The notes beneath the pieces are model-generated. The model did not search any database, had not been told where the DNA came from, and was given only the letters and a program-made list of their open reading frames with translations. Positions 2,558 through 2,749 of a stretch of 6,162 bases of DNA are shown here, in pieces. The stretch comes from a virus: IMG/VR virus record IMGVR_UViG_3300020030_000132, positions 1 through 6,162 of that record, one strand, 5' to 3'. Made by a program: the position numbers and the translations under genes. How positions within the stretch are numbered: the stretch's first letter is position 1; every line of letters starts with the position of its first letter.

Positions 2558-2749
2558 TTACGGAAGTGTAAAATTGTTCGAGCGAATAATGTAGTCTATG
2601 CGAACAGTATCAATATGAACACCTGTCCGAGCAACCTTGGCTTGCGCAGAACACGAAGCAAGGAAAAAAGCCGAAAGGGCAGCGATTATAGACGAAACGA
2701 GCGTCCAAAAAGCCTTCGACTTATAGAAAGGTTGTTTAGCGTCTGACAT
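2558..2749 (-). CDS. Small putative lipoprotein (63-aa precursor, predicted 31-aa mature lipopeptide); function unknown.
   Basis: ATG at 2747..2749. The TAA at 2558..2560 ends 1 nt before the VP2 ATG (TAA-T-ATG). The ORF does not overlap other genes.

The N-terminus reads MSDAKQPFYKSK, then the hydrophobic core AFWTLVSSIIAALSAFF, then LASC (Leu30-Ala31-Ser32-Cys33, Cys codon at 2651..2653). This fits the lipobox consensus [LVI][ASTVI][GAS]C at a typical distance from the start. Confidence 0.7.
   Translation of the reverse strand: MSDAKQPFYKSKAFWTLVSSIIAALSAFFLASCSAQAKVARTGVHIDTVRIDYIIRSNNFTLP

Follow-up and report, generated by a model that had tools for sequence, protein, structure and literature searches.

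How microviruses outside the phiX174 group leave their hosts is a long-standing gap in our picture of phages that rank with the most abundant gut viruses. According to Roux et al. 2012 (PMC3394797), phiX174 is the only microvirus with a known lysis mechanism. The question is raised again by IMG/VR virus record IMGVR_UViG_3300020030_000132, whose 6,162 nucleotides (the window, that is, the whole stretch of DNA that was analysed) make up a whole microvirus genome with all of its recognisable genes on the minus strand. Directly ahead of the gene for the pilot protein, VP2, lies an open reading frame (ORF) of 63 codons, which an earlier reading of the letters alone (the sequence-only reading) had proposed to encode a small lipoprotein acting in lysis or on the cell envelope. 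Our analysis leaves us confident that positions 2749..2558 hold a genuine lipoprotein gene. As to its role, we tentatively favour release of the virions. The parts of the locus that matter most for the argument are the following:

2749..2558, minus strand: lipoprotein precursor gene (LPP), very probably genuine, 63 codons plus TAA, defined by the ORF listing, selection and homologues
2654..2749, minus strand: predicted signal peptide, residues 1-32, with a Lys-bearing n-region and an h-region predicted to be helical
2651..2662, minus strand: lipobox L30-A31-S32-C33, with the Cys33 codon at 2653-2651
2561..2653, minus strand: predicted mature peptide of 31 residues, CSAQAKVARTGVHIDTVRIDYIIRSNNFTLP, residues C33-P63, subfamily A
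2554..2560, minus strand: coupling junction TAA-T-ATG between the lipoprotein gene and VP2, as read in the window sequence
2556..1183, minus strand: VP2, or pilot protein, by its match to PHROG 8689 'pilot protein for DNA ejection' (E = 1.1e-7), with which annotated relatives agree
2772..2869 (also ~2870-2885), minus strand: structured intergenic element just 5' of the lipoprotein ATG

The 63-codon ORF runs from an ATG at 2749-2747 to a TAA at 2560-2558 and translates as MSDAKQPFYKSKAFWTLVSSIIAALSAFFLASCSAQAKVARTGVHIDTVRIDYIIRSNNFTLP. As the sequence-only reading had it, the ORF occupies a slot of its own, starts with ATG and stops one nucleotide before the VP2 ATG (2556-2554), base 2557 alone standing between the two. 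The description of the product was likewise borne out: an n-region with three lysines (K5, K10 and K12) leads into a 17-residue hydrophobic core (F14-L30) and the lipobox LASC with Cys33, and 31 residues would remain after processing. We scanned all six frames of the window with a rule of the PROSITE PS51257 type, which asks for K or R within the first seven residues, a hydrophobic h-region, the pattern [LVI][ASTVI][GAS]C and a Cys at position 15-35. The 63-residue protein, with K5 in the first seven residues, an uncharged h-region, LASC and the Cys at 33, was the sole ORF to pass. Such a hit counts for less than it might seem, as at least one rule-passing ORF turned up in 28% of dinucleotide shuffles of the window. 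Therefore, the lipobox pattern in a single sequence is not significant by itself, and judging from the sequences it is only through conservation in relatives that chance appears to be exceeded.

This conservation turned out to be extensive. The 63-residue protein matches 319 clusters at 90% identity in a collection of 5.8 billion proteins and, in an exhaustive search with E up to 0.001, 54 clusters at 50% identity, together with 39 GenBank phage records and about 200 IMG/VR stretches. Every one of the 116 distinct proteins of the family that came from the fetched loci has the Cys, at position 29-34, and the rule given above is passed by 111 of them, the exceptions being four proteins with LESC and one with FCASC. 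The lipobox itself takes several forms in the family (LSSC, LASC, LTSC, TVGC and others), and the Cys and the mature motif are invariant down to ~45% identity. We then compared 86 distinct 63-codon sequences. At a synonymous divergence of 0.63, the ratio of nonsynonymous to synonymous polymorphism (pN/pS) is 0.147 in the lipoprotein frame; the alternative frames yield 2.2 and 2.3. For the first, second and third codon positions, entropy amounts to 0.30, 0.17 and 1.12. The sequence-only reading had named homologues and selection as the points to be checked. Among the homologues the ORF, its Cys and its hydrophobic core are kept, and with a pN/pS of 0.147 against values above 2 in the other frames the gene is under strong purifying selection. 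Its product is predicted to be a Sec-type lipoprotein precursor with a 32-residue signal peptide, a lipobox cysteine at position 33 and a mature peptide of 31 residues.

The side of the membrane that the mature peptide would face can be judged from the residues next to the cysteine. It had been claimed that no acidic residue follows Cys33. As written this is incorrect, since D47 and D52 lie within the mature peptide, but the claim stands for positions +2 to +5, where D and E are absent from the window's protein and from all 111 rule-passing homologues. The acidic surface-export signal of Bacteroidota is thus missing beside the Cys, as the sequence-only reading had maintained, and the product would be expected to face the periplasm.

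Many relatives of the gene have been called or annotated as encoding 100 residues, because 37 upstream codons (MLRARTP...GRAFFYRSL) are in frame with it; in the window the same nucleotides are read in another frame, as an ORF at 2865..2686. We rejected the 100-residue reading. The extension is in frame at only about half of the loci, being out of frame or interrupted by stops elsewhere, and it forms a conserved stem with compensatory changes. Across 84 loci the distance to the nearest in-frame upstream stop ranges from 1 to 50+ codons, and the element occurs in all three frames. Since the upstream extension is a non-coding structure that is in frame only sometimes, the start of the 63-residue protein is the Met of MSD.K. 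A Cys at position 70 of a 100-residue protein is in any case incompatible with a lipoprotein signal.

The structure responsible for this confusion, located between the genes for a VP3-like protein and the lipoprotein, is strongly conserved. It begins with CTTTACTTGACGATATATG and is closed by a GC-rich stem of 8 bp, in which GTGCGCGG (2858-2851) pairs with CCGCGCAT (2791-2784). The stem encloses ~60 nt with variable inner hairpins and is followed by TTTTTCTATCGTTCTTT / TTTTTCT, the T-run extending from 2784 to 2780. Its compensatory changes comprise one replacement of CG by GC and replacements of GC by AU that occurred twice at one pair and once at another. A simple scan for terminators and promoters did not flag the element, its loop being too long for the pattern used by the scan. 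Possible roles include a terminator, an origin for the complementary strand and a regulatory structure. In two IMG/VR relatives (L024 and L025) an extra GC-rich insertion of ~90 nt (…GGCGAGGTGACGCATTTCGCGGTTCGGAGAACCGCCCCGAACGAAGTGAGGGTGCGGCACCG…) lies between the stem and the lipoprotein ATG.

Next, we focused on the anatomy of the protein. A model made with AlphaFold2 from a 23-sequence alignment has a confident helix at residues 12-32, with a predicted local distance difference test score (pLDDT) of 84-89, and a low-confidence hairpin at 34-42 / 48-56 (pLDDT ~58-60). Foldseek found no match to this model in PDB with E below 1, the mature part of the model being of low confidence. The signal peptide is the better conserved half of the precursor, with a pN/pS of 0.109 compared to 0.188 for the mature peptide. 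K12, F14, W15, L17, A24 and F29 are invariant or nearly so, and the groups F14-W15, A23-A24-L25 and F28-F29 are nearly invariant. Such conservation is unusual for a signal peptide. Bacteriocin release proteins have stable signal peptides that add to their effect, and a similar property would fit the conserved signal peptide seen here.

The mature peptides fall into two subfamilies. In subfamily A, to which the window's protein belongs, R41, G43, H45, D47-T48-V49-R50, D52-Y53 and R56-S57-N58 are invariant or nearly so, and positions 38-40, 42 and 60-63 are variable. In subfamily B the mature peptide is TARHYVVQSASSIKSGDTTRTTITYEQIGNFKRP, attached to a signal peptide, SKKFW[ST]LVAAIVAALAAFFLESC, that is closely related to the window's; subfamily B relatives gave no tblastn match to the window's protein. 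Both mature types have 30-35 residues and the alternating pattern of a β-hairpin. The subfamily-A peptide (…KVARTGVHIDTVRVDY…) also resembles strand-turn-strand repeats, such as VAYTPTVTGLHTDTVQVDYNDG, in P0170, a bacterial protein of 950 residues with Ig-like (ASH) domains of the HYDIN/CFA65/VesB type; the likeness may simply reflect a hairpin motif that is common.

The relationship between the two halves of the precursor is more telling than either of them. In a number of homologues an unrelated signal peptide is followed by a lipobox Cys and the same mature peptide. We found this arrangement for subfamily A at locus L091, which comes from an Alistipes metagenome-assembled genome (MAG), and in proteins P0149 and P0161, and for subfamily B at loci L156 and L157. 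Because unrelated signal peptides join the same Cys and mature peptide, the precursor is probably cleaved and lipidated at the Cys. Among the computational arguments for the importance of processing at the Cys, this shuffling of modules appears to be the strongest.

Small lipoproteins are known from other phages, but none has been characterised in Microviridae and the present family matches none of those known. Searches of the 63-residue protein against Pfam, PHROGs, NCBIfam, PADLOC and PDB sequences returned sub-threshold matches only, mostly at the level of the signal peptide: none in Pfam (E up to 0.1), signal-peptide-level matches alone in NCBIfam (E ~0.2), a single marginal match in PADLOC (E = 0.005) and none among PDB sequences (E up to 10). 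By sequence, then, the protein does not appear to belong to the colicin lysis, Rz1, Llp/Cor or entericidin-type families. Our search of the published literature found no paper linking microviruses with a lipoprotein, nor one linking single-gene lysis with a lipobox. One third-party annotation (TPA) / nr entry of the gene in GenBank has been automatically named 'lipoprotein'.

How widespread is the gene, and where does it sit? According to a cross-tabulation of GenBank phage records, a family member is present in 44 of the 44 with a capsid protein that matches the window's at 54% identity or more, which makes the lipoprotein a core gene of this gut-microvirus clade. In window-type genomes it always directly precedes VP2. 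Between its stop codon and the ATG that opens an ORF of 250 residues or more, 118 loci have a gap of 1 nt and 8 have one of 2 nt (126 loci), so that the proposed coupling to VP2 is upheld well beyond the window. In other relatives (L006 and prophages L090, L091, L098-L103) the gene is found between VP2 and Rep.

The closest public genomes are those of unclassified Microviridae from the faeces of pig, civet, rodent, lemur and tortoise, with a DNA identity of 75-81% across about half of the genome. The host was traced through integrated copies. In a genome collection, two Alistipes records, A. montrealensis kh20 and the Alistipes MAG, contain integrated microviruses with a subfamily-A lipoprotein. 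Moreover, three IMG/VR stretches (L098, L100 and L103) share the same host flank with its helix-turn-helix (HTH) gene, and L098 also contains the HIT-family gene found beside the prophage in A. montrealensis. On the strength of the prophages and shared host flanks, Alistipes (Bacteroidales) is most likely the host. The HTH gene was located beside the prophages at L090 7101-7565, L091 14082-14597, L098 1717-2172, L100 13-444 and L103 622-1104, the L091 prophage having the opposite orientation relative to it. That all Alistipes microvirus prophages adjoin the same HTH gene suggests one preferred integration site.

For subfamily B no host was found, all 18 clusters being on contigs of ~6 kb or less. 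Genomes with a B-type lipoprotein belong mostly to one lineage by Rep and the VP3-like protein, and the capsid protein and VP2 are mosaic throughout. The idea that A and B mature peptides are freely exchanged as cassettes has to be tempered on account of this single Rep/VP3-like lineage. We saw no link between lipoprotein type and the type of VP2 N-terminus; for example, L104 combines an A-type lipoprotein with a VP2 N-terminus like that of B genomes.

What, then, does the lipoprotein do? Computation cannot separate a role in virion release from one in superinfection exclusion, and we slightly favour the former. Our tentative first choice is that the lipoprotein is an envelope-disrupting release or lysis factor; this choice is made because the gene is universal in the clade, because there is no enzyme-type lysis gene and because it is co-expressed with the structural proteins. 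Searches against Pfam and PHROGs found no enzyme-type lysis gene, endolysin, holin or i-spanin among the window's proteins, and no homologue of M15 peptidases was detected in ~155 lipoprotein-bearing loci. Bacteroides phage phiHBP1, the one isolated Bacteroides microvirus, has an M15 peptidase and lacks the lipoprotein.

If the lipoprotein is a release factor, events may be pictured as follows. Translation of the precursor comes immediately before that of the pilot protein and is coupled to it; the product would then be exported, acquire its lipid at Cys33 and be cleaved by signal peptidase II. The resulting lipopeptide would build up alongside the structural proteins and weaken the envelope until virions can escape. 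It may do so in the manner of the colicin lysis proteins (bacteriocin release proteins, which are lipopeptides of ~30 residues) or in that of the outer-membrane half of a spanin, and it would probably cooperate with a protein with two transmembrane (TM) segments encoded inside Rep. The genes upstream and the overprinted ORF are:

6091..5000, minus strand: Rep/VP4, by PHROG 942 and Pfam REP_ORF2-G2P
5472..5113, minus strand: overprinted 119-residue ORF with two probable TM segments, in the +1 frame of Rep
4996..3197, minus strand: major capsid protein VP1, by PHROG 514 and Pfam Phage_F
3184..2888, minus strand: acidic 98-residue protein, VP3-like by position only

The overprinted ORF deserves attention of its own. 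All of the 91 distinct sequences compared have its ATG, and the frame is open over its full length in 98% of 144 loci, compared to 0.6% of synonymous Rep resamplings by chance. Synonymous divergence of Rep falls to 0.31 within the overlap from 0.71 before it and is 0.61 after it. The translation has two strong hydrophobic segments and gave no match in Pfam or PHROGs. The ORF probably encodes a genuine membrane protein and is a candidate for lysis in the classical style. We did not detect it in most of the relatives of the Alistipes prophage type. Long hydrophobic alternative-frame ORFs were also noticed inside Rep of more distant lipoprotein-bearing microviruses (L112 and L138, with ORFs of 237 residues, and L102 at 1392-2009), and overprinting on Rep may be widespread in the group.

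Among known systems, the closest precedent in design would be the colicin lysis proteins. The ColE7 lysis protein is a 47-residue lipoprotein precursor with a 19-residue signal peptide and a mature part of ~28 residues, and such proteins permeabilise the envelope via outer-membrane phospholipase A (PMC2896534). Like the present protein, the colicin lysis or bacteriocin release proteins (Kil, Cel; Pfam Lysis_col) are tiny precursors, the mature part comprising ~28-31 residues in both; they undergo the Sec export, lipidation and processing predicted here and are co-expressed with the cargo that is to leave the cell. Unlike them, the window's protein has no match to Lysis_col (E up to 0.1) and a longer signal peptide of 32 residues, the host belongs to Bacteroidales, and the cargo would be a ~25 nm virion rather than a protein. 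Outer-membrane spanins of the Rz1 type are also phage-encoded, with a lipoprotein signal, a short periplasmic mature part and a gene close to or overlapping others. However, neither a partner i-spanin nor a holin/endolysin cassette was found here, the only neighbour with such features being VP2, a virion protein, and the mature part is neither rich in proline nor provided with a Cys that could form an intermolecular disulfide. The layout of a u-spanin (T1 gp11) would formally be matched by the ~195-residue frames of many relatives, which would combine an N-terminal lipid anchor with a C-terminal hydrophobic stretch and a basic tail. The window's protein is complete at residue 63 and lacks both a second hydrophobic segment and a C-terminal anchor. 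Finally, phiX174 E is likewise a small membrane-targeted microvirus protein with a conserved N-terminal hydrophobic helix, and a lysis role is plausible here. Yet the lipoprotein gene stands in its own slot rather than being overprinted, and its lipobox Cys is invariant while its helix is replaceable; the counterpart in design of phiX174 E and K in the present genome would be the ORF overprinted in Rep.

Several observations weigh against a role in release. The contrast with phiHBP1 is a single case. Neither by sequence nor by fold does the protein match any lysis lipoprotein. The same genome offers a more classical lysis candidate in the overprinted two-TM ORF, and for the same reason the argument that the lipoprotein is the only membrane-targeted protein of the phage fails. 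Permeabilisation of the envelope would by itself leave unexplained how a ~25 nm virion crosses the peptidoglycan. In addition, in the prophages of Alistipes the gene lies terminally and follows a host gene that points the same way, a position that is awkward for a toxic gene and typical for an exclusion or conversion gene.

The last point leads directly to superinfection exclusion, a role that we consider possible though somewhat doubtful. Here the periplasm-facing lipopeptide would bind an outer-membrane receptor, or block the conduit formed by the pilot protein, as Llp of T5 and Cor of T1/phi80 might suggest; further microviruses could then not adsorb or inject, and progeny would not be lost on cell debris. 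Llp works on its receptor from the periplasmic side and buries an interface of 1,640 square angstroms (PMC9586334). Llp and Cor, too, are small phage lipoproteins, and the periplasmic-face location of Llp is the one predicted here. The existence of two mature subfamilies, together with the shuffling of signal and mature parts, is the pattern expected of a specificity determinant. The gene comes first at one end of the Alistipes prophages, several times downstream of the same-orientation host HTH gene as a moron would be; a harmless product is compatible with stable prophage carriage, and the genome has another candidate for lysis. On the other hand, the gene is found in every one of the 44 capsid relatives, and dedicated exclusion genes are unusual in genomes of ~6 kb. 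With about 30 residues, the mature peptide is half as long as that of Llp (31 versus ~61 residues) and has neither a second Cys nor the disulfide of Llp, and similarity in sequence or fold to Llp or Cor, or in sequence to defence families, was not detected beyond the marginal PADLOC match. Moreover, lipoprotein similarity does not track capsid similarity: the two nearest capsids (87-89% identical) are paired with lipoproteins that are 79-83% identical, lipoproteins that are 92-95% identical are paired with capsids that are only 65-71% identical, and subfamily B follows the Rep/VP3-like lineage rather than the capsid.

The remaining explanations fare worse against the same evidence. It looks improbable that the lipoprotein is a factor for the pilot protein or for assembly, helping VP2 to insert, the particle to assemble at the envelope or the DNA to be delivered, or that it remodels the envelope for some other purpose than lysis and exclusion. 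It is a core gene that in window-type genomes is invariably beside VP2 and coupled to it, but its place between VP2 and Rep, away from the VP2 junction, in L006 and the prophages named above means that adjacency is not required. VP2 is also mosaic, only 40-50% identical, among genomes with near-identical lipoproteins, and we know of no microvirus that requires a periplasmic factor for assembly. Still less probable is an uncleaved signal anchor that resembles phiX174 E and inhibits a membrane step of cell-wall synthesis through its conserved helix, a variant that the sequence-only reading had put forward. The helix is indeed more conserved than the mature part, with its nearly invariant aromatic and Ala-Leu groups, and is common to A and B. 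However, in the five homologues with unrelated signal peptides it has been replaced and the Cys and mature peptide kept, so the helix is dispensable and the Cys, invariant in all 116 proteins, is not. Very improbable indeed is the absence of a functional protein, the ORF being either a leader that delivers ribosomes to the VP2 start or a product of chance. The conserved 1-2 nt junction would suit a leader and the frequency of lipobox-like patterns in shuffled windows a chance ORF; against both stand selection at the amino-acid level with a clear third-position signal, the occurrence of the gene away from VP2 and the invariance of the Cys and mature motif over large distances.

The gene is common in gut viromes, and the family is unusual in its make-up, being a core gene with a highly conserved signal peptide and a ~30-residue mature peptide in two subfamilies. 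With the lipoprotein and the ORF overprinted in Rep there are now two conserved candidates for the exit of these phages, and a host genus, Alistipes, can be named. If it is a release factor, the lipoprotein would be the first lipoprotein lysis effector in a single-stranded DNA (ssDNA) phage and would mark a vulnerable target in the Bacteroidales envelope; should it serve exclusion instead, Microviridae would have their first described factor of this kind, with a bearing on the population dynamics of gut microviruses. A bolder proposal, which we regard as unlikely, is that the family represents a new class of phage effector, a core, lipidated hairpin peptide of ~30 residues with which ssDNA phages of Bacteroidales breach or reprogram the host envelope. 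Were this true, the peptide might act alone, as the first lipoprotein factor for 'single-gene lysis', or in the outer membrane as partner to the two-TM protein from the ORF overprinted in Rep, in a minimal two-part lysis system that works without an enzyme against the cell wall. On this view the host target would differ between the two subfamilies of mature peptide. The ~195-residue forms of Alistipes prophages would span the envelope, with a J-like capsid- and DNA-binding peptide as their cytoplasmic tail, linking packaging to release.

These long forms lead to the region downstream of VP2, where the window has four further ORFs:

1158..799, minus strand: uncharacterised 119-residue ORF
869..468, minus strand: uncharacterised 133-residue ORF
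508..431, minus strand: basic 25-residue ORF MMKARRKKKGKGTKVVTRPLGGRVL, overlapping the 3' end of the 133-residue gene in another frame
229..29, minus strand: uncharacterised 66-residue ORF

The core of the 25-residue ORF, MK[AS]RR[KR]KKG.GTK.VTRPLGG[RK]VL, is nearly invariant in ~120 loci. No library family matched it, and we take it to resemble the J DNA-packaging protein of G4/alpha3. In prophage-type relatives, and in ~30 of the 54 clusters formed at 50% identity, the frame of the lipoprotein continues free of stops, running through the +1 frame of the next gene (~130 residues) into a J-like tail (...RRGGRRGKPRPKIKxIPLGGSHL) and yielding proteins of ~195 residues. Examples are L090 7977-8585, L098 2432-3025 and L103 1440-2027, as well as proteins P0124-P0166. 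The middle part of these proteins is not conserved, and the hydrophobic stretch before the tail is marginal, with a 19-residue Kyte-Doolittle average of 0.9-1.8. Synonymous resampling of the next gene indicated that chance alone could leave the frame open in 12-37% of cases, depending on the lineage. In window-type genomes the conserved tail is a separate 25-residue ORF with its own ATG. The long forms could be either a real envelope-spanning fusion or a by-product of an easily open frame.

Public records mis-call the gene in several ways, including the 100-residue ORF discussed above and mergers with VP2. Four 'UNVERIFIED' records (MG945498, MG945680, MG945683 and MG945716) place it under 'similar to VP2', and in MG945498 this feature spans the lipoprotein ORF together with its stop codon. 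The names of protein entries (P0042 and P0178) are inconsistent as well: next to the one called 'lipoprotein' there is a subfamily-B entry called 'chitin synthase regulator'.

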